From positions 3,434-67,433 of the forward strand of contig JASMMA010000005.1 of assembly GCA_030748415.1 (NCBI GenBank): a stretch of 64,000 nt of DNA, written 5' to 3'. The notes below the pieces were generated by a model. It did not search any database and had not been told where the DNA came from. It was given only the letters and a program-made list of their open reading frames with translations. This document shows positions 27,962 to 50,119 of this stretch, piece by piece. The DNA comes from Planctomycetota bacterium (GTDB taxonomy: Bacteria; Planctomycetota; UBA1135). Both the position numbers and the translations under genes were made by a program. The stretch's first letter is position 1. The number at the start of each line of letters is the position of its first letter.

Positions 27962-28328
27962 CGATACCGAACCCGACCCTTTTTACCGAGAAAAAAAGAC
28001 CCTACTCGCAGGGGGCTCTCACGCCGCAGGCGCTCGTTTCTCAGAAGCTCCGCGAAATAGGATTGCCCTCGCGCCCCCACCTCCACCCCACACCCCCAAT
28101 CGGTGTTGGCGATATCGGGCGTTAACAGTTGGCTCTAAACAAACCGCCCCAATTCCTAGTGGCGGATTTGGTGGGTCACTTATTAGCTCGAGGGTCCGGT
28201 TGCGCGGATTTTGGCGCTATGCCGCGGGAGGCGGCTTAGTGCCACTGGAGCGCAACGGATTCCCTCGCGCATAAAAAAACAAACCCAACAAATACCATCA
28301 CAAACAAATCAACAATCACAAACAAATC
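27962..28328 (-). repeat. paralogous intergenic element, copy A (candidate sRNA gene, sense on minus strand)
   Basis: The reverse complement aligns with 39959-40274. The 38-nt block rc 28231-28268 matches at 35/38 positions. The 25-nt hairpin plus T7 (rc 27991-28015) is identical, and the 28 nt at 27962-27989 are identical. Confidence 0.85.
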
Positions 28329-28332
28329 AGAA

Positions 28333-29016
28333 CTATTCGTTATCCGATTCCTGGAACACACCCTTAACGCCGTTGACATCGAGTAGAACGGCAGCGGCGT
28401 CAATCTTTCCGCCCGCTGAAGTCGTGCGCACAACGAGGTGGATGGTCCATTCTTCAGTTGTATATTCAGTAACGATGAGTTTTTCAACGCGATAACCATG
28501 GGAGCGCAAAGCTTCTGCCAAACTTTCAACCAGCCCAGGGCGTGGTGCGGCGGTGACATCGAGTGCGCGGCGTTTTACGGAGCGCAACAAACTGCTTTCC
28601 ACGGGAGAAAGAACTAGAAGCGCGAACAAAATAAACGCTGCACAAAGAACGGCTTCGGGAATGAGGCCAGCACCAACGGTTAAACCAAGGGCAGCAACTG
28701 CCCACAAAACGGATGCGGTGGTTAGGCCATGAACAGTTAATCCGGTTCGCAAAATTACGCCTGCTCCAAGGAATCCCATGCCACTAATCACTTGAGCAGC
28801 GATTCGACCGGAATCGTGAAAGTCACGGCCATCGGCAACCCGTTCAGAAAGAATCATGATGAGTGCCGAGGCCGCGCCGAGAACGGTCAAAGTTCGAAAG
28901 CCAGCCGGATGGCCGCGCATTTCGCGCTCCATTCCGATGAGGGCACCGAGGCCGCCAGCGATTGCCAAACGAGCCGCGACATCAATCAATCCAGGGTCCA
29001 GGGTGATAGAAAGCAT
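28333..29016 (-). CDS. MgtC/SapB family membrane protein
   Basis: The MgtC N-terminal domain has GLGALIGMEREMRGHPAGFRT. The C-terminus is a soluble ACT-like domain. Confidence 0.85.
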   Translation of the reverse strand: MLSITLDPGLIDVAARLAIAGGLGALIGMEREMRGHPAGFRTLTVLGAASALIMILSERVADGRDFHDSGRIAAQVISGMGFLGAGVILRTGLTVHGLTTASVLWAVAALGLTVGAGLIPEAVLCAAFILFALLVLSPVESSLLRSVKRRALDVTAAPRPGLVESLAEALRSHGYRVEKLIVTEYTTEEWTIHLVVRTTSAGGKIDAAAVLLDVNGVKGVFQESDNE

Positions 29017-29038
29017 TCTTATTGAAACCCTAGCACTT

Positions 29039-29335
29039 ATGATGGTGGAAATGAACTCCCCTGCCGTCGAATGCGCCCACTGCGGCTACGAAATTGCCAG
29101 TTTCACGGAAGCTCTTGAAGCCCTAGAAGGGGGCGGCCGATGCCTTCTATGTGGTGGAGATATAGCCAAGGAGGCTCTTGAAAGGGCAGTGGACAACTGG
29201 AGCGACGAGAAGTTGATTCAAGAAGGGAAAAGCCGCGCTGACCAGGAAAGCGAGGTCATGGAAGAAGAAGAGCTCCTCGAAGGCGGCCCCGATTTTGGGG
29301 ATGACGGCGAAGACGAAGAAGATCCCCTTCTTTAG
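29039..29335 (+). CDS. small zinc-ribbon protein with acidic tail
   Basis: CAHCG...CLLCGG forms a CxxC-x(24)-CxxC pattern. The C-terminus is very acidic. It is followed by a terminator. The start is uncertain because it lies only 22 bp from the divergent mgtC start. Confidence 0.5.
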   Translation: MMVEMNSPAVECAHCGYEIASFTEALEALEGGGRCLLCGGDIAKEALERAVDNWSDEKLIQEGKSRADQESEVMEEEELLEGGPDFGDDGEDEEDPLL

Positions 29336-29338
29336 GGC

Positions 29339-29357
29339 CTGCCGTTCCGGCAGTTTT
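29339..29357 (+). terminator. short intrinsic terminator
   Basis: The stem CTGCCG/CGGCAG has a 3-nt loop and is followed by TTTT. Confidence 0.45.
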
Positions 29358-29439
29358 GGGGCCATCGGGTAGGGGCATAGACAGCCCTAACTGATTGTAT
29401 TTCATTAACTTAGGTCTTCCTTGGCGGCTAGGGCCCAAG

Positions 29440-29455
29440 TGGCACAAAGCTTGCA
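29440..29455 (+). promoter_or_regulatory. sigma-54 (-24/-12) promoter
   Basis: TGGCACaaagcTTGCA matches the consensus TGGCAC-N5-TTGCW with the exact GG-N10-GC spacing. It ends 15 nt before the receiver gene ATG. Confidence 0.55.
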
Positions 29456-29470
29456 CACTTCCCTAGGACC

Positions 29471-29878
29471 ATGTCGTACCGCATCCTCATTGCCGACGAT
29501 TCCTCCGACTGCCGACGGGCCATGGCTGACCTGTTGGATTCGGCTGGGTTCCTCGTGGAGCAAGCCGAAGATGGCTCCGCCGCCCTTCAACGGCTTCTGG
29601 AGACGGCCTACGACCTTTCCCTGCTGGACATGCACATGCCTGCCCTTACTGGCCTTGAGGTTCTTACCCAACTTCAGCACAGCGGAGTCCGCACCCCCAG
29701 CATTCTCATGACGGGCCATCCATCGCGAGCCATCGAAGCTGCTGCTCTTGAAGCGGGTGCGCGGACCATGCTCCGGAAACCCATCCCTGCCGAGATTCTC
29801 CGAATCACGGTTCAAACCATCGTTTGTGAAATTCACGGCCCCGAAGGTGGGCCCCACCCCGGCCCCCATCGGGCTTGA
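29471..29878 (+). CDS. single-domain CheY-like response regulator
   Basis: All receiver residues are present: the ADD acidic pocket, LLDMHMP (phospho-Asp), MTG (Thr) and RKP (Lys). There is no output domain. Confidence 0.85.
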   Translation: MSYRILIADDSSDCRRAMADLLDSAGFLVEQAEDGSAALQRLLETAYDLSLLDMHMPALTGLEVLTQLQHSGVRTPSILMTGHPSRAIEAAALEAGARTMLRKPIPAEILRITVQTIVCEIHGPEGGPHPGPHRA

Positions 29879-29918
29879 CCTTAGCGCTCAATACCGCGCA
29901 CAACCCCTAAATAAAAAC

Positions 29919-30227
29919 ATGGCCGACACTGCCAACAAAGTTGCTATCCGTCCCCTTGGCGACAAGGTTCTTGTCCAACGCACCGAAGCTGCCGAAATCA
30001 GCGCCGGAGGCATTGTTCTTCCTGACTCTGCGAAAGAAAAGCCAAAGGAAGGCACCATCATTGCACTCGGCGAAGGCCGCATGCTTGAAGACGGTAACCG
30101 CACCGAGTTCACTGTAAAGATGGGCGACACCGTTCTCTTTACCTCCTACGCCGGCACTGAAGTGAAGTGGAACGACGAGGAGTATCTCATTTTGTCCGAG
30201 GAAGACATTCTCGGAATCGTCGGCTAA
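29919..30227 (+). CDS. groES: co-chaperonin GroES
   Basis: It has IRPLGDKVLVQR, GGIVLPDSAKEKP and the typical 102-aa length. Confidence 0.95.
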   Translation: MADTANKVAIRPLGDKVLVQRTEAAEISAGGIVLPDSAKEKPKEGTIIALGEGRMLEDGNRTEFTVKMGDTVLFTSYAGTEVKWNDEEYLILSEEDILGIVG

Positions 30228-30260
30228 TCGAAGCCTAAATCATCAACATAGGAAATAAAA

Positions 30261-31931
30261 ATGGCTGCTAAAAAAATCGCCTACGACCAAGATGCTCGCG
30301 AGCACATTCATGCCGGCATCAGCAAACTTGCTGCCGCAGTGAAGGTAACCCTCGGCCCTCGCGGACGGAATGTCATCATTGAAAAATCTTTCGGCACACC
30401 AACGGTAACGAAGGATGGTGTTTCGGTTGCAAAAGAGGTTGAACTCGAAGACAAGTACGAGAACATTGGTGCTCAACTTGTGCGCCAGGTTGCCTCAAAA
30501 ACTTCGGACGTCGCTGGCGATGGAACAACCACCGCTACCGTTCTTGCTGAAGCAATCTTTGAAGAAGGTCTGCGCTCGGTAACAGCTGGCGCAAACCCAG
30601 TTGAATTGAAGCGCGGAATGGAAGCCGCTGTTAAAGCTGCTTCTGACTTCCTTCTTGAAAAATCTAACCCTGTCGCCGGCATTCAAGAGATTGAGCAAAT
30701 CGGCACGGTTGCCGCAAACAACGACCCTGAGATTGGTTCCAAACTTGCCGAGGCTTTTGAGCGCGTTGGCAAAGATGGGGTCATTACTGTTGAAGAAGGT
30801 CGCTCACTTGATACTGAAATCGAATGGGTTGAAGGAATGCAATTCGACAAGGGTTATCTTTCCCCGCACTTCTCCACCGACATGGAGCGCATGGAATGTG
30901 TCATGGAAGATCCATACATTTTGATTTTCGAAAAGAAAATCTCGAATGTGCGCGACATGCTTGGCTTGTTGGAAGAAGTTGCCAAGAGCGGAAAGCCACT
31001 TGTCATCATCGCCGAAGATGTTGAAGGTGAAGCTCTTGCAACTTTGGTTGTCAACAAATTGCGCGGAATCTTTAAGTGCGTTGCCGTGAAAGCTCCAGGC
31101 TTTGGTGATCGCCGGAAAGCCATGATGGAAGATATCGCTGTTTTGACTGGCGGAACTGCTCTCATGGAAGACATGGGTTACAGCCTTGAAAAAGCAGCTT
31201 TGGAGCACTTGGGCACAGCCAAGCGCGTGGTTATCACAAAAGATGACACCACCATTGTTGAAGGTGCTGGTTCTACTGACGCCCTCAAAGCTCGGATGGA
31301 TCAGATTAAGGTTGAAGTGGATAAAGCTACTTCTGATTACGACAAAGAAAAGCTTCTTGAGCGTCAAGCCAAGTTGGCTGGCGGAGTTGCCGTACTGAAT
31401 GTAGGCGCTGCAACCGAAGCTGAAATGAAAGAAAAGAAAGCTCGCGTCGAAGACGCCCTTCACGCTGTTCGCGCAGCTGCTGAGGAAGGAGTTCTCCCTG
31501 GTGGCGGAACCACTTTGGTTCGCGCCCAGGAAATCGTGAACAACCTAAAGCTTGACGGCGACCAAAAGTTTGGCGCTGAAATCATTGCACGCGCCTTGGA
31601 AGCACCGATTCGTCAAATCGCCGCGAATGCCGGCATTGACGGTTCAATCGTTGTGGACCGTGTCCGCGCAGAGAGCAACTTCTCCCATGGCTTCAATGCT
31701 GCAAAAGGTGAGTATGTGGATCTCGTTGCAGATGGTGTCATCGACCCCACCAAAGTTGTTCGTTCGGCCCTGCAAAACGCCGCTTCTGTGAGCACCCTTC
31801 TCCTTACTACCGAGGCCATCGTGACCGAGATTAAGGATGAAGCCCCTGCAATGCCTCCTGCCGGTGGCGGCATGGGTGGAATGGGTGGAATGGGCGGTGG
31901 CATGCCCGGCATGGGCGGAATGGGTTTCTAA
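30261..31931 (+). CDS. groEL: chaperonin GroEL
   Basis: It has [23 protein letters not shown] and a GGM-repeat C-terminus. Confidence 0.98.
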
Positions 31932-31980
31932 AAGACCCCTCCTTCGCCGCTGCAGCACCCATGTAGCGAAAAGAAACATA

Positions 31981-32012
31981 ACGGCGACCCCCTTCCAAGG
32001 GTCGCCGTTTGC
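31981..32012 (+). terminator. hairpin after groEL (weak U-tract)
   Basis: A perfect 10-bp stem, ACGGCGACCC/GGGTCGCCGT, has an 8-nt loop. Only TTT follows it. Confidence 0.45.
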
Positions 32013-32053
32013 GTCAGAATCGGGGTGGCCCCTCGCAAAGCCCAACACTCCCC

Positions 32054-32458
32054 TTGAAGGCAATCGCCTTTCTTACCTTTCTCCTAGCTGGTTGGTTACC
32101 GGCAACCGATTACCATGTTTCCCCCTTCGGTGACGATGTCACTGGAGATGGGAGCCTTCTTTCGCCATGGAGAAGTGTGACCCAAGCCACAACTGCTGTG
32201 GTAAGCGGGGACCGAATTCTGGTTGGCGGCGGAACCTATGACAGCTTTTCTGGTGAGTCCTTCCCCATCACAAGTGGAGACCACAAGAATTTCTCCTGTT
32301 CGGATTGCCATCTAATTCCCAATAATTTTGTTAGCTTCTCTTGTACTCATTGCCACGAACATCGGCAATCAAAAATGGATGATGAGCATGACGATGGATC
32401 AGGCTACATATGGGAAAGTTCAGCTTGCCTCAGTTGCCATCCCAACGGGCGAGACTAA
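32054..32458 (+). CDS. exported tri-haem c-type cytochrome with beta-helix-type N-terminal segment
   Basis: It has three CxxCH motifs: CSDCH, CTHCH and CLSCH. The in-frame TTG at 32054 gives the signal peptide MKAIAFLTFLLAGW. The track ATG at 32009 lies inside the groEL terminator hairpin. Confidence 0.65.
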   Translation: MKAIAFLTFLLAGWLPATDYHVSPFGDDVTGDGSLLSPWRSVTQATTAVVSGDRILVGGGTYDSFSGESFPITSGDHKNFSCSDCHLIPNNFVSFSCTHCHEHRQSKMDDEHDDGSGYIWESSACLSCHPNGRD

Positions 32459-32460
32459 TG

Positions 32461-33612
32461 CTAAAAACTCCAGTGCAAACGGACTTGAAAAGCGCTTGAG
32501 TTTCCGACTCCATTGACCTGAATCCGATTGGATTCGATGCGCAGAATGTGGTTGGGTTTCATGTGCACATTGAGCGCAAGGGAGTTCACTTTGCCGGTTC
32601 CTGCCTGGATGTTGCCCGAGTTGAGGTCTGCCCAGGAAGAGCGAATGGACAACTCCCAGATACTGGGAACCCCTGTTAGCTCTCGTCGAAAACGCGGTGC
32701 ATCAAACGCAACACGGCCCGGAATAATACTTCGGCTACCTCCTCGAAAAACCCAACCTAATTGCGCAGAACCAGAAAGAAAATTGTGGTCTTCAATGCCT
32801 CCACGATCAACTGTGGTAGAAACTTCGGCAAGCGCTGTAAGGGTTTGGGTGGTTGCGGCCGCTTCCAAGCTAAGTTGTTGAACACTTTTAGCTTGGATGG
32901 GACCCGTTGCAAGTAGTGTTGGAAAAGTTGAGACTTCACCACCGATGTTGAGGGAGTAAAAGTTCTCTTCGGGAAACCGCAAACTCGCACTTAGCCCCGA
33001 ACTTGCTTGTACATTGGAAAAACTCATCGGCATAAAATCAAAATCTCCTTCGTAGTGCCAATGCATCCGACCAGTAATCGCTTTCGCCGTTTCTCCCCCA
33101 TTTTCAAAATCCAGGGAAGGTTCTGAAGTTGCCCAAAATGCCCCCAAGGCCCAACTTCGGCTTGCATGTTTTTCATAATCCCAGGCCATAACACCGAGAT
33201 TTCGACCAGGAGAAAAATCCGTAGTCAAGGAGCGCTCCAAAAACAAAATGTTGTCGCTGGGGGTCAGCGCTTCGAACGAAAAGGGTTCCCGGAAGTGGCC
33301 GAACCGGAGGTGGCCTGGGCCACTCCACTCTTTTCGGTCTATGTAAAAATCTTTAAATCCCTTAGAGCGGAAATCGACTGTTGAACGAAAATGAGCAGAG
33401 TCGTTCTCACTTGAAAAGCTCAACCGAAGCCGTCGCGTTTCCCGTTCATCTTTCAAGTCGCCATAGCTGGTGACGAAACCGGGCTGAGGGTTGAAAAAAA
33501 CAGCATCAAGCTCCACTTTCCCGCTGATTTCTAATGGAGGTCTTCCCACATCCTGCGCATGCGACGCACCTAAGAAAGTAAGGCTGAGAAAAGCGGTGAG
33601 GAAAATTCTCAC
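32461..33612 (-). CDS. outer-membrane porin, phosphate-selective porin O/P (OprO/OprP) family
   Basis: It has a signal peptide and RRLRLSF...FKDFYIDRK...LRFGHFREPFSFE...FLERS, matching the Porin_O_P pattern. The C-terminal residue is Phe. The GTG start forms a GTGA overlap with the upstream stop. Confidence 0.8.
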   Translation of the reverse strand: MRIFLTAFLSLTFLGASHAQDVGRPPLEISGKVELDAVFFNPQPGFVTSYGDLKDERETRRLRLSFSSENDSAHFRSTVDFRSKGFKDFYIDRKEWSGPGHLRFGHFREPFSFEALTPSDNILFLERSLTTDFSPGRNLGVMAWDYEKHASRSWALGAFWATSEPSLDFENGGETAKAITGRMHWHYEGDFDFMPMSFSNVQASSGLSASLRFPEENFYSLNIGGEVSTFPTLLATGPIQAKSVQQLSLEAAATTQTLTALAEVSTTVDRGGIEDHNFLSGSAQLGWVFRGGSRSIIPGRVAFDAPRFRRELTGVPSIWELSIRSSWADLNSGNIQAGTGKVNSLALNVHMKPNHILRIESNRIQVNGVGNSSAFQVRLHWSF

Positions 33613-34340
33613 CGAGGCCTCTTCTTTTTACGGCGGCGCTTAGGGTCTTCAGCAGTGGGTTCAGGTTTGCGGAAAATGACCAAGTGTTGGAACCCACGCA
33701 GAAAGAAGTTGGTCTCTTCAGCGGCCTTGTGGTAGTTGCCTTTATCTAAATCCTTATTCCCTCGGACAACTGCAATGTGGTCCACAATTTCAGCAATCTG
33801 GGAAAGCATGAAAATAAACTGTGCACCAATTGGCGTGAAACCTTTTCGGTGCCAGATGTCGGCGGCGTAAACGGCCCCACACTTTCCAGGCTTGAGCACG
33901 CGCCACATTTCTTCAAAAACCTTACCCATTTCTTGAAAATAGGCCTCTTCCCGAGCGCTTAACTCCCCAATGCAATCTCGGCTGCCGGAGTAGCGCAGGT
34001 TTCGGCCATAAGGTGGATCCACGAAAACAAAGTCGGCACAATCATCTTCGATAGGAAGTTCTCGAGCATCTGCTTCCTGCACTTCGGGGTGATGTGGCTG
34101 AAGGTCAAAGCCTATACCCTTGCGCCCTATGTCAGCGCATACATCGAGGGTTGTCCCGGAACCGCACATGGGGTCCACCACAACTTCACCGGACTGGGTG
34201 TAACGCTGAAGCAAATTCCAAATGACCCAGGATGGGGTCGCACCCCGGTAATCCTGCGAACCTTGCTCGCCCTTTCCATAATGCTGGGAAGGGTATTGCC
34301 AAAGAGTGGTAGTTTGAAGGCTTAGTTTGGGGCTGGGCAT
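33609..34340 (-). CDS. SAM-dependent methyltransferase with DPPY motif (DNA N6/N4- or RNA-amino-methylase-like)
   Basis: Motif I is VVDPMCGSGTTLDV, followed by FVFVDPPYGRNLRY. The tail is basic. No restriction enzyme gene is adjacent. Confidence 0.8.
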   Translation of the reverse strand: MPSPKLSLQTTTLWQYPSQHYGKGEQGSQDYRGATPSWVIWNLLQRYTQSGEVVVDPMCGSGTTLDVCADIGRKGIGFDLQPHHPEVQEADARELPIEDDCADFVFVDPPYGRNLRYSGSRDCIGELSAREEAYFQEMGKVFEEMWRVLKPGKCGAVYAADIWHRKGFTPIGAQFIFMLSQIAEIVDHIAVVRGNKDLDKGNYHKAAEETNFFLRGFQHLVIFRKPEPTAEDPKRRRKKKRPR

Positions 34341-34342
34341 TT

Positions 34343-37087
34343 CTACAGGTGATAAGCCGAATCGGCGGGCCGGACTGCGCGGGCGAAGTGGAGGGGGCGG
34401 CGAAGGCCGTTAGTTGGCTTGCACTCGCTTTGCTCTAACCACTCACGGAACACCTTCATAGACCGGCGTGTGTCCACTTCAATGTCACCATAGCAATCAC
34501 CCGAGATTGCTTTGGTTACGACTACTTTTTGGTGCCAGCAATGCATGCCGGATACGGGGTCGGGTTGAACAGGAAACGTAAGGTTTTGATGAACACCCCC
34601 CTCGGTCCACCAGATGCGGCTCGAGTCGGGATCCTCAGAAGAGAAGGGCGCAATGTCGGTCAGGCGCCGCATTTTCCAAATACCTGGTTCTGGATTGTCC
34701 ACCTGAACAGTGGGCGATGCCCATCGGTCTGTGCCTCCTTCGCCACTTTGAATTCTCCACCGACCCAAGTGATGCGAACAAGCCACAACCCCAGGGCGAA
34801 TGCCCTCTGTAACCCAAGCTTTATTCACAAAATACCCGATGCGTGTTGAAACTCGAACCAGGTCCCCAGATTCCACGCCAACCCGAGCGGCGTCGGTTGG
34901 GTTCATCCAAACGGGGTTCGTGTTCGACAGTTCGGCTAACCATTTTGAGTTTGCGGAACGCGTGTGAATCAGAGTTGGGATTCTGAATGTAGGCACCAAG
35001 GCCATCTCACCCGCTGTTTGATCCATATCACTAAATCGAATGTGGCTCGGCAAATACTTTGGGAGTGCATGCTGTTCCACTCCCCACTCTTTCATGGTTG
35101 GAGACCAAACCTCCAACTTTCGAGAGGGGGTGTTAAAGCCAGCAAGTCGCTTGCCGCAAATATCAATACCAGGTTTATCAGCAGAAACCTCTTTAAGGTG
35201 AGCCGCCACAGACCCATCGGGCTCCACTTCAAAGACCCCGTACTGCCGCATGTAATCCATCGGGCTCAAGCCCTCTTTTTCAGCTGCTTCGGGTAACCCG
35301 GGAACAGAGTTTTCAAAAATCCAACGGTAATACTCTTCAGAAGTGACGCGCTCACCTGGGCGATACGGGGATTCGAACCATTTTCGGATTCCAAGAGAGC
35401 CGTCCTCGTCAATCGCCCATGAAAGGGCAATCCAAAACTCATCCTCTTCCCAGACTTCTCCGGGATTGGCTTGCCAGGTCCACTCAATCTTTTCGCCATC
35501 GGCTTCGCGGGAAACTCGGAGAACCGGTTGTCTAAAACCAATCCACTTTCCAGCATGGGTTTCTTGACTCATGATGTCGTGCCGCTCTGAGGCCAGGCCC
35601 ATGGGTAGAACCCAGTCCGCATAGATCGCGGTTTCACTCCAAGTCGGAGTCAGTGCTACATGACATCCGACCAAAGATTCATCCGACAGTACCTCCATCC
35701 ATGCGCACCCATCTGGGTTGGTCCACACGGGGTTGTAAACACGGGTGAAATAAGTGTCGAGTTTTCCTCTACCATCCATCAGGAGGTGTGGAAGGAGGAA
35801 GCTTAATTCATGGTGAGAAAGTGGCCACTCTTTTGGGTAAAGGAGTTCATTCCAAACCGTTTGTGGCGGTGGCTTCACAAATGGAGCGGGAACAAACTTG
35901 TTGTCAGAGTGGAGAAAAGTTCCGCCTGGTGTTCCAACCGAACCGGTCAGTACAGTTAAGAACTGTAAACACCTTGCAACTTGCCAACCACCACGATTCC
36001 CAGATGCCGCGTTGCGCCAAACATGAGAAGCAAAGGCGCCGCGCGCTTTTCCGATTTCTTGTCCAACCGCAACTACAGCTGAGGCTTCAATTCCACATTC
36101 TTCAGCCGTTCTTTCTGGAGTCCATTCTTCAACGAGGCTCTTCAAGCTCTCCAGAAACCGTTCGAACGAAGGTGCCTCACCCGGGTATTCCGCGAGCATC
36201 CAATCTTCCCAATTAGTCCAGGTGCGTAAATATTCCTGATCTTCAAGGCCTTCTTTCAAAATCACGCGAGCAAAACCCAGCAATAAGGCTGCCTCCGAAC
36301 CCGGATGCGTTGCAAGCCAATAATCACTCATGGAGGCGGTATTGGAAAGCCGAACATCCACGGTCGCGATTTTCGCGCCGGACATTTTGGCTTCCATAAT
36401 TCTCTGTGCATGAGGATTGAAATAGTGGCCTGTTTCCAAATGCGCGCTCAAGAGCAAGATAAACTTCGCTCGAGCATGGTCAGGGGAAGGGCGGTCGCTA
36501 CCCGACCACAAGCTATAACCCAAACGAGCCGCGCCTGAACAAACATTGGTATGGCTGTTGTGGCCGTCCACACCCCATGCTTGAAGAACACGGTCCATAT
36601 AACCGTCTGCCCCAGGCCGACCGACATGGTACATCACTTCGGTTCGGCGGTTTTCTTGAAGCGCTTTTCGAATCCGTGGAGCGATTGCTGCAATCACATC
36701 ATCCCAAGTAGCTCGTTCAAACTTACCCTCCCCCCGCTTTCCAACTCGACGCATCGGGTAAAGGATTCGTTGTGGGTCTTGAATCTGATTTAGGGTCGCA
36801 GGCCCTTTTGCACAGTTTCGCCCGCGCGACCCGGGGTGGTAGGGGTTGCCTTCAAACTTCCGAACCTCGCCCGTTTCTTTATCAACATAGGAAATCAACC
36901 CACAGCCGGCCTCGCAGTTAAAGCAAATAGTTGGAACAATGCGGTAATGCTTTTCAACGCGCTTTGGCCATGCTTTTGAATCGAGCTCTACCCAATCATC
37001 CCACTTATCTTTCGGCGGGCAAGACTCGAGGGTCGTGGTTTGCCACTCTTCACCTGATGGCGCAACTTGGGAAAGGTCCATTTTCAT
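34343..37087 (-). CDS. molybdopterin (MopB superfamily) oxidoreductase catalytic subunit, no Tat signal
   Basis: The N-terminal 4Fe-4S motif is CFNCEAGCG...C. The protein is large, 915 aa from the ATG at 37087, which forms an ATGA overlap with the upstream stop. There is no twin-arginine motif. Confidence 0.9.
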   Translation of the reverse strand: MKMDLSQVAPSGEEWQTTTLESCPPKDKWDDWVELDSKAWPKRVEKHYRIVPTICFNCEAGCGLISYVDKETGEVRKFEGNPYHPGSRGRNCAKGPATLNQIQDPQRILYPMRRVGKRGEGKFERATWDDVIAAIAPRIRKALQENRRTEVMYHVGRPGADGYMDRVLQAWGVDGHNSHTNVCSGAARLGYSLWSGSDRPSPDHARAKFILLLSAHLETGHYFNPHAQRIMEAKMSGAKIATVDVRLSNTASMSDYWLATHPGSEAALLLGFARVILKEGLEDQEYLRTWTNWEDWMLAEYPGEAPSFERFLESLKSLVEEWTPERTAEECGIEASAVVAVGQEIGKARGAFASHVWRNAASGNRGGWQVARCLQFLTVLTGSVGTPGGTFLHSDNKFVPAPFVKPPPQTVWNELLYPKEWPLSHHELSFLLPHLLMDGRGKLDTYFTRVYNPVWTNPDGCAWMEVLSDESLVGCHVALTPTWSETAIYADWVLPMGLASERHDIMSQETHAGKWIGFRQPVLRVSREADGEKIEWTWQANPGEVWEEDEFWIALSWAIDEDGSLGIRKWFESPYRPGERVTSEEYYRWIFENSVPGLPEAAEKEGLSPMDYMRQYGVFEVEPDGSVAAHLKEVSADKPGIDICGKRLAGFNTPSRKLEVWSPTMKEWGVEQHALPKYLPSHIRFSDMDQTAGEMALVPTFRIPTLIHTRSANSKWLAELSNTNPVWMNPTDAARVGVESGDLVRVSTRIGYFVNKAWVTEGIRPGVVACSHHLGRWRIQSGEGGTDRWASPTVQVDNPEPGIWKMRRLTDIAPFSSEDPDSSRIWWTEGGVHQNLTFPVQPDPVSGMHCWHQKVVVTKAISGDCYGDIEVDTRRSMKVFREWLEQSECKPTNGLRRPLHFARAVRPADSAYHL

Positions 37088-38571
37088 GAGTTGGGTTCCT
37101 CTTGGCCTGCAAAAATCCATGCTTTTTCAAAGGGAAGCATCGAGAGAGCTGTAAGCGCAGCAACAACAGGGAACACATGGGTTTCCAATTCATTTCCTGT
37201 CGCCACCAAGCAACCCAACCCCGTTGCAAGAATCAAACCTAATACAAAAAGTAATGGGCCACTGCGACCTGCTAAGCGGCGGCGAGCGCGATCTGCGCTT
37301 GCGGTTTTTGTTTTTCCACGAATCTCATGATTCAAGAATGCGAGATTCAGAATCCCCAATAAGGCTAATACCTGACCAGCTAAGACTGAAGCGGTTACAC
37401 CCTCAAAAGCAAAGGCAAGAAGCAATCCCAGGAGAGAAGCACGGGCAATGAGGGCAGGGAATAAGCCATTCTCTAACCACAAGTCGCGGCCGCGACATTG
37501 AGAAAACAAAAATGCGGAATAACCCGATGTCATGACGGCAATTGGTAAAGCAAGCCACCGCAAAACTGAAACCAATTCAGTTAAGCCCGCCCATTGGCAG
37601 GCAAGCGATGCCACAGTCACCGCACCAAACATCGACAAAATCCAAGCTCCGCGAACGAGCCATGAAGCGGAATTGCCTCGTGTCAATAAGGAAAGCGCCC
37701 GCTCAGGTTTGCCAAGGTCTGCAATCAGCAAAGCGGCGGTGAGAGCAAGGGCCACAAGTGCTACCCACTCATGGATTCCACCCGCGGGCATTCCGAGATA
37801 TGCCAATAGGGGCGCAACCAACATCGCGCCGGCGGCAACATTTTTGGTGAACAAATATCCCCAAACATGCCAACCCCAAGGGGGCGCGTGGTCTGTGTCC
37901 AAAACAGTTTTGGGTTCACCCGGTTCAAATTGGGGAAGACCTTCAGGGATTCCTGGAGGGGGGAAGCGGCGGTCCGACCAGAGCCAGGAGTCGGGCTGAC
38001 TTGTGGCGCCAGGCTCTAAAGATGCCTCGAGGGCATCTACATACCAAACTCGGGGCCCTGTTCCTTTTTCTTCTCGCCGCCGTTGAACAGGTAAATCTAA
38101 AACTGTCTGGGAAATAGGGGATTGGGGGTCGTCTAAGTCTCCTGCGAGAATAGCCTGTTCAGGACAAATCACTGCGCATGCGGGTTGAAGCCCCACCTCG
38201 ACTCGGTGAGCGCAGAAATGGCATTTCTCAGCTACACCAGAGTCTGGGTTCAAGTAAAGCGCGTCGTATGGACAAGCTTGCATGCAAGATGCACAACCGA
38301 TACAGGCGCCTCGGTCTAAGTCCACAATGCCGTCGTCGCGCTTGCTGAGGGCGTGCACGGGGCAAATTTTCATACAGGGTGCATCGTCGCAATGATTGCA
38401 ACGCATCACGCTGAAGTGGCGGCGGGAGTCGGGAAACTCCCCCACTTCGACATACTTCACCCAAGTGCGGAAACTGCCCACCGGCACTTCATTTTCAGAT
38501 TTGCATACTACGGTGCAGGCGTGACAGCCAATGCACTTTCGCTGGTCAATGACAAATCCGTAGGCGGTCAT
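37084..38571 (-). CDS. fusion of four-cluster 4Fe-4S ferredoxin (PsrB/DmsB-like) and NrfD/PsrC-like membrane anchor
   Basis: The Cys clusters are CIGCHACTVVC, CNHCDDAPC, CIGCASCMQAC and CHFCAHR...C. About 300 aa of polytopic membrane domain follow. Confidence 0.85.
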   Translation of the reverse strand: MTAYGFVIDQRKCIGCHACTVVCKSENEVPVGSFRTWVKYVEVGEFPDSRRHFSVMRCNHCDDAPCMKICPVHALSKRDDGIVDLDRGACIGCASCMQACPYDALYLNPDSGVAEKCHFCAHRVEVGLQPACAVICPEQAILAGDLDDPQSPISQTVLDLPVQRRREEKGTGPRVWYVDALEASLEPGATSQPDSWLWSDRRFPPPGIPEGLPQFEPGEPKTVLDTDHAPPWGWHVWGYLFTKNVAAGAMLVAPLLAYLGMPAGGIHEWVALVALALTAALLIADLGKPERALSLLTRGNSASWLVRGAWILSMFGAVTVASLACQWAGLTELVSVLRWLALPIAVMTSGYSAFLFSQCRGRDLWLENGLFPALIARASLLGLLLAFAFEGVTASVLAGQVLALLGILNLAFLNHEIRGKTKTASADRARRRLAGRSGPLLFVLGLILATGLGCLVATGNELETHVFPVVAALTALSMLPFEKAWIFAGQEEPNS

Positions 38572-38603
38572 ACTCCGCTCAGTTTAAGGTCGCGGCAAGA
38601 ATC

Positions 38604-38769
38604 AGACACTGACACAATCCGCTGGGTCATTTTTTTCTTAATCCCTTTGCTATTAATCACTTGGGATCCAATTAAGTTGAGACCTAGCCCTGTCTCAATT
38701 CGAGTACCCAAACCTCTTCCATAAATGGCTTTGCGGAAAGGGGTGACCCAGCGGATTGTGTCAGTGTCT
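38604..38769. repeat. hairpin element E1: perfect 26-bp terminal inverted repeats, 114-bp spacer
   Basis: 38604-38629 (AGACACTGACACAATCCGCTGGGTCA) is the exact reverse complement of 38744-38769. Confidence 0.95.
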
Positions 38770-39761
38770 TAGTGGGCCACGAAGCCCAAAAGTTCGACCT
38801 GGCCATTGGTGTAATGATCCTTCTGCTCCTCATCCGAACAATAGTCGGTCGAGAGATACTTTTTGTTGCTATCAGCAAAAACCGTGGCCACATCTCCCCC
38901 CGTCTGGAGGGCAATCTGAACTGCGCCAACGAAATTCGCGCCGGACGAAATTCCCACCGCTAAGCCTAGATCTGCCGCAAGCTTTTGAGCCATCAAAATG
39001 GCGTCCCCATCCCAGACATCCACAATGTCGCTGAGCCAGTCTAGTTCCACAATCGAAGGCACGAATTCATCGGAAATACCCTGAATCCGGTGCTTTCCAA
39101 CCTTGCAGCCGGTGCTCATCGTGGGGGAGTTGGCCGGCTCAAGAGGGTGGCTGGGGAAGTCCTCTCCCAATTTCTCGCGTAAAAACCGCCCGACACCCAT
39201 GACCGTTCCGCCCGTGCCAACACCTGCAACGAAGGCGGTAGGAATTGCCTCAGCCGCCTGCATTTGGGACAAAATTTCTGGACCGGTCCCTCGGTAGTGG
39301 GCCTCGATGTTGGCCTCATTGTCAAATTGGTGAGGCAAGAAGACCCCAGGCGTTTCAGCAGCAAAGGAGTCCGCCTTTTGAATGCTTCCCAAAAAACCAC
39401 CCTCTTCCTTGCTCACGGGTATCACAGCAGCGCCCAGGCTCTGGATTACCTGCACCCGCTCCATGCTCATCCAGTCTGGCATATAAATCCGCACCGAGTG
39501 CCCCAAGGCTCGTCCAACAGCAGCGAAAGAGATTCCCGTGTTGCCAGATGTGGCTTCTACTAAGGTGTCCCCCGCCCTGACTGCACCCTTTGCATAAGCA
39601 TCCCGCATGATGTGCAGGGCCATCCGGTCCTTAATACTCCCAGTAAAGTTGATAGATTCCTGTTTCGCCCAAATAGAGAACTCCTTCCCCTCTACGCGGC
39701 ACCGAATCTGAAGGATTGGAGTGTTCCCAATCAATTTTTCAAGGGCGGCAATGTTGTTCAT
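38769..39761 (-). CDS. cysK: cysteine synthase (PLP-dependent, CysK/CysM family)
   Basis: It has GNTP, NFTGSIKDR (the PLP lysine) and TSGNTGISFA motifs. Confidence 0.9.
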   Translation of the reverse strand: MNNIAALEKLIGNTPILQIRCRVEGKEFSIWAKQESINFTGSIKDRMALHIMRDAYAKGAVRAGDTLVEATSGNTGISFAAVGRALGHSVRIYMPDWMSMERVQVIQSLGAAVIPVSKEEGGFLGSIQKADSFAAETPGVFLPHQFDNEANIEAHYRGTGPEILSQMQAAEAIPTAFVAGVGTGGTVMGVGRFLREKLGEDFPSHPLEPANSPTMSTGCKVGKHRIQGISDEFVPSIVELDWLSDIVDVWDGDAILMAQKLAADLGLAVGISSGANFVGAVQIALQTGGDVATVFADSNKKYLSTDYCSDEEQKDHYTNGQVELLGFVAH

Positions 39762-39798
39762 GGGGAGTCAAAATAACGCTTTCATCCTATCGCGCCAC

Positions 39799-39830
39799 AA
39801 AAAAAGGAGTCACTCCTAAGAGCAACTCCG
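39799..39830 (-). terminator. putative terminator downstream of tRNA-Leu
   Basis: On the minus strand, GGAGT...ACTCC hairpin options are followed by T7 (A-run 39799-39805 on the plus strand). Confidence 0.45.
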
Positions 39831-39836
39831 ATGTTT

Positions 39837-39925
39837 TGGTGCCGGGAACAGGGGTCGAACCTGCACTGAGTATTATCCCAACATGGCCCTCAACCATGCG
39901 CGTCTGCCAATTCCGCCATCCCGGC
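39837..39925 (-). tRNA. tRNA-Leu (anticodon GAG), 89 nt with encoded CCA
   Basis: I folded it by hand. The acceptor is GCCGGGA/TCCCGGC. The anticodon stem is CATGG/CCATG with loop TTGAGGG. It has a long variable arm and a GGTTCGACCCC T-arm. Confidence 0.9.
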
Positions 39926-39958
39926 TGGGTTTGGGGTTGGAGATTCTACAAAAGCGGC

Positions 39959-40274
39959 GATTTGTTTGTGATGAGATTTGTTGGGTGTGTTTGGTTTTCT
40001 GTGCGAGGAGATCCGTTGCGCTCCAGTGGCACTAGGCCGCATCCGGCGGCTTTGCGGCAAAATCCCCACCTCGGGCGAGTAAGTGTGACCCATAACGACC
40101 AATATCGCCAATACAGGTTTGATTGTGGGGAGGAGATTGCGGCCCGAGTTTATCTGGCGGAGCCGAAATGAGATTTGCCAGGGGAGGCCACATACCAGGC
40201 AAGGAATCCGAACGGGAGGACCCCCTGCGAGTAGGGTCTTTTTTTATCGGTAAAAAGGGTCGGGTTCGGTATCG
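39959..40274 (+). repeat. paralogous intergenic element, copy B (candidate sRNA gene, sense on plus strand)
   Basis: It aligns with rc 27962-28328. The conserved 38-nt block is 40003-40040. The hairpin plus T7 is 40219-40245. The last 28 nt overlap the 3' end of the convergent 706-aa gene. Confidence 0.85.
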
Positions 40275-42364
40275 AAAGATAACTCGCCTGAGATTAGAAG
40301 ACTTGCGTCACGGCGGCCCATCTCCAGAGAAATCCCTAGCCACTTCAAGGCCATTGCCGGAAGAAAGGACAGTTGGGCGCGCTCGACCATTGTTGGCCGT
40401 TGCCTCTCCCACTGTGCGGATGCGCGATCTTGGAGAGCTTCGTCCACAGCATCCATTAGGCGCTGCTTTTGTGCCTCCTTTAATTGGATTGCGCCAGGAA
40501 ACAAAAACTCCCTTTGTTTCTTCTCTTCTTCCGGGCGCCATTGGCGGAACACACTATTCTCCATTCTTGTGAGAAATTCTGCTCGCGCAGACTGTTCCGC
40601 AAGTTGGCTGAGCCAGTGAGCTGACTTCAATGGTTCGCCGTAGAGAAAGAACTTTGAGCCCCCCTGGATTCCATTCAAGATTGATTTGAATCCCTTTTGG
40701 TGAGACAACTTGAATTCATCGGCACTATTGGCAGATTCTGAAATGTGTGCAACATCCACAATGTCCCGAAGGTACTTGTAAGAGTTTGTCACAACAACTG
40801 TTGGAGGGCGAGTGTTTGGTAATTTATAGACAACGAATTCTCCGGTACCAGGAATCATTGGAGATGAGAACGAAATTGCTTTAGAGCCTCCACCAATGGG
40901 AACACTTTCAACTCGAGGGCGGTCTGAGCCTTGAGCAAAGCTACTTGCATTATTCTTAAAGAACTCCAGCAAGTTTTCGAAACCCGAAGGATCTTTCAAC
41001 TTGCCCATCATTGCGAAAACAGGAACTGGTGAATCATCATGCTCAACATCCAGGGTCTCATCAGCTGGATAGTCGTTTCGGCGGATGGAGAAATAAAGCC
41101 CCCCGTGCAATGTTTGGCCAATAGTCTCAAAAAGATGGGCCATCCCTTGATACTTTCCCGTCTCGATAATTATTTCATCAAGGATCCGACGAACATCTTT
41201 GGGGAATGAGGATTCTAGTTGGAGCAGTGTTCGGCCTGAATCACCAGCAATGGCCCCGAAAAGAAATGACTCTGCGGGAACCCTCCCAGCAAATTCTTTG
41301 AGAGATTTTTCGCCAATTCCCTTTCCCTCGGCCCATCCGCGTTGAAATGCAGGTGCCTCGCTTAAATCAATGTCACCGGAAAACCGACCCTCAAAGTGAT
41401 TGCCAGGTAACCAATAGCCAGACAAGTACCGCAAAAGTTCGGTGTTAAAAAAGGAGCTAAGGACACGAGCCCAGTATGCCGTGGATTTTGGATTTGGGAA
41501 CACTCCAAATTTTTTGGATGCCTCATCCCAGTCCACAAAAATTTCGAGTGGCTCGTCGCTTGGCGTTAAAAATGCCGTGACATTGTCTCGATATTTCGAC
41601 GCACGACCTATTGAATCTTGGCCAGAGCGGTTTTCTAAATCCTTTGCAATATCCAACCACTCCCGGCTAGTTGAAAGAACCAATACATCTTTCATGCGAG
41701 TTAAAAAGGCATCGCGCATTCCAAATGGAGGAAATTGAACTAATTTATATCGGTCGCCGCCAAGCTCTTCGAGCCCCAAGGCCTGAACTTTCGAGCGTAC
41801 AGAACTGAACCCTAGCAGGGAAATCCCCGCCTTTACTTTAAATGAAACCCGCAACATCAAAAGCCCGTCGAATTCGGACCCCAATGATGGTGTGCCACGG
41901 CCGGCTAATACAACTTCCTTCAAAATATCGTTGGTCAAACTTAAGCCGGGTGGAAGATTTCCCATAACTTTGCGCAATTCTTCAGCCATTTGGCTAGAAC
42001 CCGTTGAAGCATCCCATTGTTTGAAAGTTCCGCCTGCTTCTAACTTTTGGCCAACCTTGCTCTCGGAAAAATCCTCCCAGACCGTCGGTACAGGGAAATC
42101 GCCAAACCGTTCTCCAGGCTTCTTCCAGTGGAGAAAATAATCCACCTCCCGGGGGACAACATCAGCCATGTCACCCAAGTCATCCTCCAAGGGATTAAAG
42201 AAGATGGTGGCGAAAAGGAAGTAGAGAATCACGAGCACCCCAAACAGGATGGTGATAATCCACATGAAGCGTTGACTGGTGAGGAACTCACGCAGGCGGT
42301 CGAGGAAGGAAAGTTGAGGCATTGGGGAGTTCTTTGGACGGCGAAAGAATAGAATCTCGTCCAT
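40244..42364 (-). CDS. membrane-anchored hypothetical protein (706 aa)
   Basis: The ORF is long and has one N-terminal TM segment, FMWIITILFGVLVILYFLFATIFF. I recognise no catalytic motif. Confidence 0.75.
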   Translation of the reverse strand: MDEILFFRRPKNSPMPQLSFLDRLREFLTSQRFMWIITILFGVLVILYFLFATIFFNPLEDDLGDMADVVPREVDYFLHWKKPGERFGDFPVPTVWEDFSESKVGQKLEAGGTFKQWDASTGSSQMAEELRKVMGNLPPGLSLTNDILKEVVLAGRGTPSLGSEFDGLLMLRVSFKVKAGISLLGFSSVRSKVQALGLEELGGDRYKLVQFPPFGMRDAFLTRMKDVLVLSTSREWLDIAKDLENRSGQDSIGRASKYRDNVTAFLTPSDEPLEIFVDWDEASKKFGVFPNPKSTAYWARVLSSFFNTELLRYLSGYWLPGNHFEGRFSGDIDLSEAPAFQRGWAEGKGIGEKSLKEFAGRVPAESFLFGAIAGDSGRTLLQLESSFPKDVRRILDEIIIETGKYQGMAHLFETIGQTLHGGLYFSIRRNDYPADETLDVEHDDSPVPVFAMMGKLKDPSGFENLLEFFKNNASSFAQGSDRPRVESVPIGGGSKAISFSSPMIPGTGEFVVYKLPNTRPPTVVVTNSYKYLRDIVDVAHISESANSADEFKLSHQKGFKSILNGIQGGSKFFLYGEPLKSAHWLSQLAEQSARAEFLTRMENSVFRQWRPEEEKKQREFLFPGAIQLKEAQKQRLMDAVDEALQDRASAQWERQRPTMVERAQLSFLPAMALKWLGISLEMGRRDASLLISGELSFDTEPDPFYR

Positions 42365-48934: not shown

Positions 48935-49375
48935 TTACCAGCGAAACCAAAGTCGGCGCCGGCGGCGGTGCCGGGCCTTGGAATTGGCCAAACCGGTGGT
49001 ATCGAGGTTGTGGGTTGCCTTTGTGGACTCGCCCGCTTTTTGCATAAGTGCCTTCCAGGCTTGGCCGTGGGGGGGAACTTTTGGGCCAAATAGGCGACGA
49101 ACTACCAGGTGGGCAGCTTCATGGATGAGGACATGCTCGACCTGTTCAGGGTGGCGGGCAAGTAGGCGAAGGTTCAACTCCAGAATCATGTCGTCGAGGA
49201 ATGCACGGCCCACTGTTGTACGCAGGCGGGGGTTCCAGCGAACTTCGATGACAGCTCGCAAATCTTCGACATCCCAGAGCTGGAGGACTTCGTCCAGGCG
49301 AGCCCGAAGCCGCTCCTCCGGCCAATCGGCAAGGACCAACTGGACACTGACACAATCGGCTGGGTCACCTTTCAT
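48935..49375 (-). CDS. SprT-like zinc metallopeptidase-fold protein
   Basis: It has the HEAAHLVV (HExxH) motif in a SprT-like context. The start is uncertain, because the first ~12 codons are encoded by the inverted-repeat arm of element E2. Confidence 0.65.
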   Translation of the reverse strand: MKGDPADCVSVQLVLADWPEERLRARLDEVLQLWDVEDLRAVIEVRWNPRLRTTVGRAFLDDMILELNLRLLARHPEQVEHVLIHEAAHLVVRRLFGPKVPPHGQAWKALMQKAGESTKATHNLDTTGLANSKARHRRRRRLWFRW

Positions 49376-49513
49376 TCCAAGCCTAGGTTTTATATGACTT
49401 TAGGAAGGAAAAAGGGGGCAGGCCTAGCCCCTGGACTTTTTTCTTCCCTAGGTCCTTTGCCTGAATGAACTTATCTAAGGTGATGACCCAGCCGATTGTG
49501 TCAGTGTCCAGTT
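49338..49513. repeat. hairpin element E2: perfect 30-bp terminal inverted repeats, 116-bp spacer
   Basis: 49338-49367 (AACTGGACACTGACACAATCGGCTGGGTCA) is the exact reverse complement of 49484-49513. The arms share 25 of 26 core positions with E1. Confidence 0.95.
49409..49431 (-). terminator. intrinsic terminator inside E2 spacer (for rsmD)
   Basis: The GGGGC/GCCCC stem has a 7-nt AGGCCTA loop. On the minus strand it is followed by CTTTTT, and the plus strand also has a T-run 5 nt after the stem. Confidence 0.5.
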
Positions 49514-49558
49514 GCTTCTTTGAGTCGGGTTCTTTTTGCACGGTATTTTGGGTCGGGT

Positions 49559-50119
49559 TCAGTAATGCCACCAATAAAGGGAGGTGGTGCCGTAGTTGCG
49601 TTGGACGAGGCCGGGCAGGTTGTCCATTTCGTTTGAGTTGAGGATGCCGCGGGGGGTGTGGGCGACGGAGCAGCCGCCATGGTTGAGGCGGCGAGAGAGA
49701 TTGCAAAATAATTCCCACACCTCAGCCCTTCGGGGGCCCTTGAAATCTTTATAGGGAGGGTCAAAAAAAACAATGTCGGGGTTCTCCACAGCTGCTTCGC
49801 TTTTGAGAAAACTGTGGGCGTCTATGCGCAAGGTTTGAATCCGCTGCTCATAACCCAATAAATCTGCAGTTTCCCGAAGTTGGCGAATTGCTCGCGGATG
49901 GCCTTCCACCGCAACAACTTCACTCGCGCCACGGGAGAGAGTTTCGAAACCCAAAATCCCTGACCCCGCATAGATATCCCAAACACGGGCCCCAGCCAAG
50001 ATTGGCCTCATGTGATCTAAGACAGCCATGCGCGCCCGCTCCACTAAGGGGCGGGTGGCTTTGACATCAGGTACGGGAAGCTTTCTCCCGCGATGTTCGC
50101 CGGCTGTGATGCGGAGCAT
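49559..50119 (-). CDS. rsmD: 16S rRNA (guanine966-N2)-methyltransferase
   Basis: It starts [14 protein letters not shown] and has [12 protein letters not shown] and FFDPPY motifs. I chose the ATG at 50119. Confidence 0.85.

Follow-up and report, generated by a model that had tools for sequence, protein, structure and literature searches.

Two paralogous non-coding elements in a planctomycete genome: possible sibling small RNAs joined to a dispersed gene-end repeat

Sibling small RNAs such as OmrA/OmrB or Qrr1-4 have a conserved upstream region, a conserved 5' end and a conserved 3' end, and their middle part is variable. Hardly anything, to our knowledge, is known of regulatory RNAs and small repeats in Planctomycetota. 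We analysed two related intergenic elements, hereafter copies A and B, found in a planctomycete genome within a window of 64,000 nt (the whole stretch of DNA that was analysed). Like OmrA/OmrB, Qrr1-4 and PrrF1/2, these are paralogous non-coding loci of a few hundred nucleotides whose upstream region and two ends are nearly identical and whose middle has diverged, with a hairpin and a U-run on one strand only. The near-invariant 5' or seed region expected of sibling small RNAs is also present here (35/38 positions, with a 24-nt invariant run). Unlike such RNAs, however, the two elements have no recognisable promoter and a weak terminator, their conservation continues for 29 nt past the U-run, and they are confined to a single lineage.

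A second group of described systems has to be considered. The pneumococcal BOX A/B/C elements, REP/BIME and ERIC are, as is the case here, short non-coding modules that are variously combined and that lie right after stop codons, between convergent genes or inside operons, at sites that are empty in relatives. These families comprise tens to hundreds of copies and have palindromic cores, whereas in the present case no palindromic core was observed, about 76 kb hold two full copies and one solo module, and the motif GTAG occurs in two of the three modules. MITEs and IS200/IS605-derived PATEs also share with our elements a small size, the absence of coding capacity, conserved ends, a variable interior and insertion at gene boundaries, and the IS200/IS605 derivatives have in common with them the absence of inverted termini and of a target duplication. 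In contrast to MITEs and PATEs, the elements studied here show neither terminal inverted repeats (TIR) nor a target-site duplication (TSD), nor a shared target tetranucleotide, nor matching subterminal hairpins at their ends; one of their "ends" looks native to its locus, and no cognate transposase was seen. The element belongs to no named family, and it resembles sibling small RNAs or modular intergenic repeats most.

Homology and mosaic conservation of the two copies

The initial annotation had described copy B as homologous to the reverse complement of copy A. This homology was borne out by blastn, in which copy B (39959-40274, +) and the reverse complement of copy A (27962-28328) share 66% identity over 354 nt (E=2e-30), and by an nhmmer profile search, which agrees with blastn. 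The two copies are inverted relative to each other and lie 11.6 kb apart; copy A takes up the intergenic gap between the mgtC and TPR genes almost entirely, with 4 nt left on the mgtC side and 3 nt on the TPR side. The entire shared units, as delimited by blastn and nhmmer, are:

39959-40274, + strand: copy B, entire shared unit, 316 nt
27962-28328, - strand: copy A, entire shared unit, 367 nt

Each unit can be read as a four-part cassette, composed of a T/G-rich stretch, a 71-nt 5' block, a fast-evolving middle of about 150-180 nt and a 62-nt 3' module:

39959-39992, + strand: T/G-rich 5' stretch of copy B (GATTTGTTTGTGAT...), 34 nt, 91% identical to copy A
28277-28328, - strand: T/G-rich 5' stretch of copy A, with an 18-nt tandem duplication
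39995-40065, + strand: 5' block of copy B, 71 nt, 86% identical to copy A, with two small hairpins
28206-28276, - strand: 5' block of copy A, counterpart of the 71-nt block of copy B
40066-40212, + strand: variable middle of copy B, sharing only short islands with copy A, with several indels relative to it, the largest of 45 nt
28024-28205, - strand: variable middle of copy A, including the A-specific 45-nt hairpin insert
40213-40274, + strand: 3' module of copy B, 62 nt, 94% identical to copy A
27962-28023, - strand: 3' module of copy A, counterpart of the 62-nt module of copy B

The T/G-rich stretch, which precedes the 5' block, was missing from the earlier description; in copy A, the 18-nt tandem duplication at its 5' end covers 28294-28311 and 28312-28329. 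Direct repeats are present at both ends of the cassette: the 5' end holds two to three occurrences of ATTTGTT(T/G)G, and the module holds three of GGGTC / GGGTTC. The 38-nt block that had been highlighted initially occurs exactly twice in the window, against zero occurrences expected by chance, and three of its 38 positions differ between the copies. The 24-nt invariant run of the 5' block is ATCCGTTGCGCTCCAGTGGCACTA, and four of the five substitutions of this block fall in predicted loops. We also found the islands CAAAATCC, TAAGTG(TG)ACCCA, ATATCGCCAAyAC and GATTGkGGG in both copies, as had been reported, together with the 3' 25-mer, identical at 25/25 positions, and the 45-nt segment present only in copy A, which indeed holds complementary CCGCC and GGCGG runs. 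In the 3' module of copy B, a weak hairpin (40223-40236) is followed by a T7 run (40239-40245) and then by a conserved tail of 28-29 nt ending GGGTCGGGTTCGGTATCG. The 3' conserved block reaches 29 nt beyond the T-run in this way, and the most conserved stretch of all (28/29 nt) is this tail after the U-run, TCGGTAAAAAGGGTCGGGTTCGGTATCG.

The divergence between A and B is mosaic, far from a uniform decay. When the alignment columns were permuted, the longest identical run (28 nt) exceeded the permutation maximum of 23 (P<2e-4), and the variance of identity in 30-nt windows was 76 against a permutation maximum of 18 (P<2e-4). Such mosaic conservation implies selection on both copies, and, judged from this alignment, it demonstrates that the cassette is constrained in sequence over about 105 nt of its 5' end and some 60 nt of its 3' end. 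A similar pattern could be produced if the elements were an old functionless duplication in which gene conversion, acting in patches across the 11.6 kb between the inverted copies, has kept the blocks alike. The two copies are indeed near each other and inverted, and since all available assemblies of the species are 99.5-100% identical, strain variation is uninformative and within-species polymorphism offers no direct evidence of ongoing constraint. Gene conversion, however, would have to have acted on several distinct patches of 25-70 nt that have indel-rich segments between them, and a third 3' module, described below, retains the 15-mer core 9 kb away, outside any conversion pair; we regard this explanation as improbable.

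The absence of a credible conserved open reading frame, noted initially, was also observed here: the frames differ between the copies or contain stops, with the single exception of one frame that is open in both copies across the 5' block to the shared TAAGTG island. This frame has no start codon in copy B, and all its substitutions but one fall at codon positions 1 or 2, with no lone third-position change. A small protein gene was rejected because of this missing start and because there are no synonymous-biased substitutions. A six-frame pseudo-protein probe, meant to detect spurious ORFs called over other copies, gave 0 matches against 5.8 billion proteins; as it did not return the JGI-called 69-aa ORF over copy B either, this negative carries no information. 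Taken together, the homology, the ORF check and the mosaic pattern support the description of the two copies as paralogous, non-coding and selectively constrained elements, and what had been observed initially is for the most part borne out.

The Rfam comparison proposed initially was carried out with Rfam 15, and neither locus matched a family at the gathering score or at E<10. At the gathering score, the search of the whole window returned nothing on the elements; at E<10, the hits were the neighbouring tRNA-Leu and chance matches to SNORA64, CRISPR-DR23 and the S15 leader, all of them outside the elements. In Rfam 15, we thus found no membership in the tmRNA, RNase P, SRP, 6S, riboswitch, T-box or HEARO/omega RNA families. 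Readings of the tail as T-box, tRNA-like or SECIS-like are unsupported by ARAGORN or Rfam. A sponge RNA of the CsrB/RsmZ type, acting on CsrA, was also considered and rejected, as GGA is not enriched (8 occurrences against 5.7 expected in copy B, 5 against 5.8 in copy A).

The 3' module, neighbouring genes and origin of the cassette

The 15-mer core of the tail, GGGTCGGGTTCRGTA, has a third exact match at 49550-49564, which belongs to a module without its body:

49522-49564, + strand: third, solo 3' module (GAGTCGGGTTCTTTTTGCACGGTATTTTGGGTCGGGTTCAGTA), without hairpin, its end overlapping the rsmD stop codon (49559-49561)

The 43 nt of this module align to the A and B modules at 32-33/43 positions, with Smith-Waterman scores of 21-23 against shuffle maxima of 14.5 and 17.0; the solo module, near 49.5 kb, is about 45 nt long, compared with 62 nt for those of A and B. 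GTAG is conserved in the A and B modules and reads GTCG in the third one. The third module lacks the A/B body and directly adjoins an unrelated inverted-repeat element, and we detected no relationship between the A/B body and the neighbouring inverted-repeat elements beyond the 3' module. The pattern is that of modules met in varying combination, with the body in A and B and without it at 49522-49564. As judged from these three occurrences, the 3' module is an independent dispersed gene-end repeat, separate from the body.

The genes that surround the three modules are:

27527-27958, + strand: TPR gene, convergent on copy A, with 3 nt between its native stop codon and the 3' module of copy A
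28333-29016, - strand: mgtC-family gene, with 4 nt between its stop codon and the start of copy A
39837-39925, - strand: tRNA-Leu(GAG), divergent from copy B, with the -10 TAGAAT at 39948-39943
40244-42364, - strand: gene of a 706-aa conserved hypothetical protein, its last 9 codons and stop codon derived from the 3' module of copy B
49559-50119, - strand: rsmD-like methyltransferase gene, its stop codon within the third 3' module

On the opposite strand, each of the three modules meets a gene end, adjoining or overlapping its stop codon, and two of them (B and the third) replace the native stop codon. At locus B, the last nine codons of the 706-aa protein (40247-40273) encode DTEPDPFYR, and the homologs from relatives end exactly at the residue before this extension; by this comparison, the cassette demonstrably gave the predicted protein a new C-terminal tail. 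A similarity between coding flanks (ISGxL) was set aside as a coincidence, since both C-termini are native.

The position of the modules could also be understood if they acted in cis at gene ends on the opposite strand, where they start at or near the TPR, 706-aa and rsmD stop codons as UAC(C/U)GAACCCGACCC... On that strand, the whole unit would be a long 3' UTR in A and B, serving as a C-rich Rho-loading, processing or protein-binding site, and it would form an mRNA-tRNA spacer at B. All three modules have the same orientation relative to the adjacent stop codon, although three of three in one orientation has a chance P of 0.25. The tail adjoining the stop codon is the best-conserved part, and the opposite strand of the module is C-rich and G-poor and, at the third copy, unusually unstructured (z +2.45). 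The three genes are nevertheless functionally unrelated, the relatives manage without the module, the antisense alignment carries no structural signal, and the conservation of the 5' block about 250 nt away is left unexplained. We consider a cis-acting role on the opposite strand rather unlikely.

The window matches the planctomycete MAG JGI 3300035204 / NCBI GCA_030747345.1. Gene order is conserved with relatives, and in the nearest ones all three sites are empty. In relative L034 (MgtC 69% identical), the mgtC and TPR stop codons abut. In a clade with RsmD 82% identical (L061-66), rsmD and sprT overlap by 4 nt, and a 126-nt spacer separates a 683-aa gene from the tRNA-Leu that follows it. 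The corresponding 658-aa gene of L031 is separated from tRNA-Leu by a spacer of about 57 nt, which carries a TTGACG-N17-TAGAAT promoter, and in the window the TAGAAT -10 lies at the same distance from the tRNA as in L031. At locus B, the T/G-rich stretch is the upstream half of the divergent tRNA-Leu promoter, and its reverse complement carries the -35-like ATCACA (39972-39967); the cassette has probably altered the -35 region of tRNA-Leu.

When we compared the upstream region of tRNA-Leu in L061 with locus B, we observed that the homology runs about 22 nt into the T/G-rich start of copy B (14/22 beyond the clear part), with a local score of 42 against a shuffle maximum of 16; for the extension alone, we estimate a chance probability of about 0.01. 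The remainder of the L061 spacer has no similarity to the element. From this we infer that the first ~20 nt of the shared unit are native tRNA-Leu upstream sequence. A 5' end native to the tRNA-Leu locus implies that copy A was probably copied from a B-type locus, instead of two insertions of a free-standing element having occurred. It is highly probable, on the comparison with these relatives, that the cassette is lineage-specific, non-coding and modular, that it was gained after the split from the nearest known relatives, and that A is a secondary copy of a B-type locus. The independent 3' module with its third copy, the lineage-specific gain of all sites at stop codons and the overlap of the 5' end with the tRNA-Leu promoter region had all escaped the initial annotation.

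These observations bear on another possibility, namely that the elements are a dispersed or formerly mobile DNA repeat of the REP, BOX or MITE kind, without an RNA function of its own. The 5' ~105 nt and the 3' ~60 nt would then be cis copying sites for an enzyme encoded elsewhere, the interior would drift, and the weak one-way terminator, the substitute -35 for tRNA-Leu and the new C-terminal codons of the 706-aa protein would be side effects. This explains the module, its solo occurrence at a third site, the stop-codon positions (three of three modules within a few nucleotides of a stop codon, two replacing the native one) and the sites that are empty in relatives and filled in A and B with the same sharp ends. 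It also agrees with the absence of both fold conservation and a promoter, described below, and with the presence in the same genome of a second small repeat family, which has terminal inverted repeats of 26-37 nt and lies at gene boundaries. One Logan contig (L023) breaks within the 5' block, which could hint at more copies. On the other hand, a DNA repeat fits poorly with the first ~20 nt, which look native to the tRNA-Leu locus, so that this end would be no element terminus, with the missing TIR and TSD, and with the internal 71-nt block, which is conserved as much as the termini. The junctions have no shared target motif, a Pfam scan of the 26 window ORFs around the three sites found no transposase-like gene, and there are only two full copies and one partial copy in about 76 kb, with none in about 25 kb outside the window. 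We regard a DNA repeat without RNA function as a serious but doubtful alternative.

Two specific versions of such a repeat were rejected. For a MITE with TIR and TSD, there is no inverted repeat between the ends of either copy and no target duplication at the junctions (flanks TAGTTCT| ... |TCGTTA for A and AGCGGC| ... |AAAGAT for B). For an IS200/IS605-derived PATE or a REP serving as RAYT substrate, the T/G-rich 5' end has no hairpin, GTAG is not found in the third module and the flanks have no common motif.

Transcription signals, folding and the small-RNA reading

The hairpin CCCUGCGAGUAGGG followed by U7 passed a simple terminator scan in A and B, on the sense strand only. It consists of 5 bp, of which 3 are GC pairs, with a loop of 4 nt, and is followed by T7; for comparison, the stem of the terminator of tRNA-Leu, also in this window, measures 10 bp. 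Taken alone, the hairpin has a folding energy of -6.9 / -5.2 kcal/mol, with z-scores of -0.1 / +0.9 against shuffled sequence. As for the terminator described initially, the restriction of the T7 run to the sense strand holds, and the hairpin itself is weak, no better than shuffled sequence. Upstream, a sigma-70 scan detected no sigma-70-like promoter on the sense strand of A or B, and the sole promoter-like site points the opposite way, toward tRNA-Leu. The proposal that each copy is its own transcription unit is not supported by these results, given the missing sigma-70-like sense promoter, the weakness of the hairpin and the position of the best-conserved sequence beyond the T-run. A sigma-54 promoter was rejected too: although the -24 box TGGCAC is perfect, the -12 GC lies too close to it by 1 nt.

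The same box was weighed when we considered that the conserved parts may be DNA-level protein-binding or recombination sites, such as iteron-like ATTTGTTKGKG, the GGGTC direct repeats, or an inversion or replication-fork-trap site. The direct repeats at the 5' end and in the module and the orientation of A, opposite to that of B and of the third copy, would suit such sites. But the spacing of the sigma-54 elements counts against them, the 12-kb segment separating the two copies keeps its collinearity with relatives and hence has not been inverted, and no recombinase gene was found nearby. There is no GC-skew switch anywhere in the window, and a replication terminus or fork trap was rejected on this basis. 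Of the explanations considered, DNA-level sites seem to us very improbable.

Even though no tRNA gene is found at locus A, the T/G-rich region retains 91% identity in this copy, as would be expected if it drives or begins a sense transcript. We infer that its retention in copy A would be best explained by the need for such a transcript.

The RNAalifold consensus has an energy of -43.7 kcal/mol against a mean single-sequence energy of -106 kcal/mol, which gives a structure conservation index (SCI) of 0.41. We did not detect a conserved global fold on either strand, the column-shuffle z-score being -0.66 for sense and -0.68 for antisense, a comparison of two sequences with low power. In single-sequence folding, the z-scores for sense and antisense are -0.75 and -0.53 for copy B, and -2.75 and -3.26 for copy A; this signal is neither common to both copies nor strand-specific. 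The 5' block alone gave a modest signal on the sense strand (z -2.1, 2/60 shuffles) against -0.7 on the antisense strand. The term "structured" used initially is not supported, considering the SCI of 0.41, z-scores no better than column-shuffled and single-sequence values discordant between the copies.

The long-range helix for which shifted complementary changes had been described was not confirmed: complementarity is present, and a double change occurs at 0 positions of this helix. In the RNAalifold consensus as a whole, 3/51 pairs are changed on both sides. In both copies, a segment Y with a CCUCG core (ACCUCGGGC in B, CCCUCGAGC in A) pairs at 8/9 positions with a downstream GCSCGAG (GCCCGAGUU / GCGCGAGGG), with one mismatch that is at a different position in each copy. 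An alternative partner, the 5' GCGAGG, is nearly as good for segment Y (7/9 and 8/9), and inverted repeats of this size are frequent here, with 2 and 4 reported per copy.

Our first-ranked reading of these data, which we hold only tentatively, is that the A and B bodies may be sibling small non-coding RNAs fused to a dispersed gene-end repeat; the reading as a DNA repeat is ranked close behind. Transcription would proceed on the sense strand, from a start within or just after the T/G-rich region, and would end at the weak hairpin and U7 provided by the 3' module, with products of about 245 nt for B and about 280 nt for A. The RNAs would use their invariant 5' block to pair with specific sequences or to bind protein, and would not depend on a large conserved fold; the conserved tail past the U-run would be part of the gene-end repeat and not of the RNA. 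We counted in favour of sibling RNAs the contrast between blocks of 86-94% identity and a middle that for a large part aligns poorly, with indels up to 45 nt, the resemblance of this anatomy to that of known sibling small RNAs, the T/G-rich region retained in copy A, the fold signal of the 5' block on the sense strand only, the location of four of its five substitutions in predicted loops, the strand-specific T7, the absence of a conserved ORF and of an Rfam match, the gains at empty sites, and the direction of copying from B to A. We counted against them the missing sense promoter, the weak hairpin, the absence of a conserved global structure and of a compensatory pair in the proposed helix, the existence of only two copies in one lineage, and the fact that the most conserved stretch lies after the U-run and recurs at a third site without body or hairpin. 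The absence of target-like complementarity was also counted against them: the complementarity of the elements to the 55 translation start regions in the window is no better than that of shuffled controls.

Distribution and wider meaning of the elements

An 18-mer of the 5' block was searched against 185,579 GTDB species genomes and gave 20 matches, none of which contains the 38-nt block; the sole planctomycete match among these 20 (L011) is coding. A 20-mer gave 4 matches in JGI metagenome contigs, with no similarity outside the seed, two scans of viral contigs gave seed-only matches, and blastn found nothing in plasmids and phages. A profile HMM found nothing over about 270 kb of the relatives' loci, and a profile search of about 25 kb of the same genome outside the window revealed no further copy; the copy number stated above refers to the window plus L040-44. 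The word "family" in the initial annotation is not supported, with only two full copies in one species-level lineage and no true match in the GTDB, JGI, viral, plasmid and phage searches. We found nothing relevant to the element in the literature.

The element is a well-delimited candidate, not a discovery, and it is confined to one uncultured lineage. If validated, a sibling small RNA pair would be among the first for the phylum Planctomycetota. The stop-codon-hugging 3' module illustrates how non-coding insertions can open compact junctions, where genes overlap or abut in relatives; here, such insertions have rewritten the C-terminus of a protein and, it appears, also changed part of a tRNA promoter.

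A more speculative proposal, which we think has little chance of being right, is that the 3' module represents a gene-end-seeking element of a new kind, which can carry or recruit cargo and would spread non-coding RNA genes in a planctomycete genome. It would land a few nucleotides from stop codons, sometimes replacing them, with no inverted termini and no target duplication, and its cargo would consist of the sibling small RNA body in the case of A and B, and of a hairpin element in that of the third copy.

Small repeats with inverted termini and their neighbouring genes

We found a second family of small repeats in the window, in addition to the non-coding cassettes A and B, with two members:
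38604-38769, copy 1
49331-49520, copy 2
The termini of these repeats are long inverted repeats (perfect over 26 nt; 95% over 37 nt), which flank a diverged interior of approximately 115 nt, and the core of the family is GACACTGACACAATCSGCTGGGTCA. The family looks MITE-like, and a search of it against Rfam gave only spurious matches to miRNA hairpins. Copy 1 abuts the stop codon of cysK and occupies most of the spacer between this gene and the FeS/NrfD gene. Copy 2 is located between rsmD and sprT, two genes which overlap in the relative L061. The sprT-like ORF appears to take its start codon and its ~11 initial codons from the left arm of this copy.

The cassette itself also reaches into a coding sequence. 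In the gene for the 706-aa conserved hypothetical protein (40244-42364, minus strand), the ancestral stop codon has been lost (window 40244-40276) and nine additional codons (DTEPDPFYR) come from the repeat module, the 62-nt 3' module of the cassette. The homologs of this protein in L031 and L061 stop at the residue preceding DTEPDPFYR.

Gene call and contig break within the cassettes

The JGI gene caller placed one ORF over copy B, in L058:
L058 2591-2800 (window 39962-40171), plus strand, 69-aa ORF
We observed no conserved counterpart of this ORF in copy A. It was not returned by our protein search, in which a six-frame pseudo-protein probe of the cassette was compared with 5.8 billion proteins, and the negative result of that search is therefore uninformative.

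In the short-read assembly contig L023 (Logan SRR25584963_644), the sequence ends at window position 28242, inside the invariant part of the 5' block of copy A. The identical run common to copies A and B at this point is ~19 nt when read by eye, and this seems too short for the break to be explained by copy B. An additional copy at another place in the genome may be responsible, but low coverage alone could also account for the break.

Gene content and the tRNA-Leu(GAG) locus

The 11.6 kb separating copies A and B (window 28329-39958) are collinear with L031 and L061 and differ in gene content. The window carries cysK, a porin and a molybdopterin oxidoreductase with FeS/NrfD; in their place L031 has two multicopper oxidase genes, and in L061 tRNA-Leu is followed directly by FeS/NrfD, without cysK.

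The promoter regions of tRNA-Leu(GAG) compared are:
window 39926-39972, minus strand
L031 4256-4312
L061 19666-19791
The spacing of TAGAAT to the tRNA is constant in all three lineages. At -35, the distant relative (L031) has TTGACG, but the window and L061 have an ATCACA/ATCACC-like sequence. At the gathering threshold, an Rfam scan of the whole window gave zero matches, even at tRNA-Leu (39837-39925), but when this locus was searched alone its score was 48 bits, where the cut-off is 29; negatives of the whole-window gathering scan therefore deserve limited trust.

A Cys-rich tandem-repeat ORF

Tandem repeats were also observed within a short ORF:
19976-20251, minus strand, 91-aa ORF (repeats at 20050-20202)
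Its three repeats of 51 nt each encode Cys-rich 17-residue repeats, and its N-terminus is signal-peptide-like. The adjoining 331-aa ORF contains a GxxGxGKT motif, from which it reads like a putative CobW/G3E GTPase.
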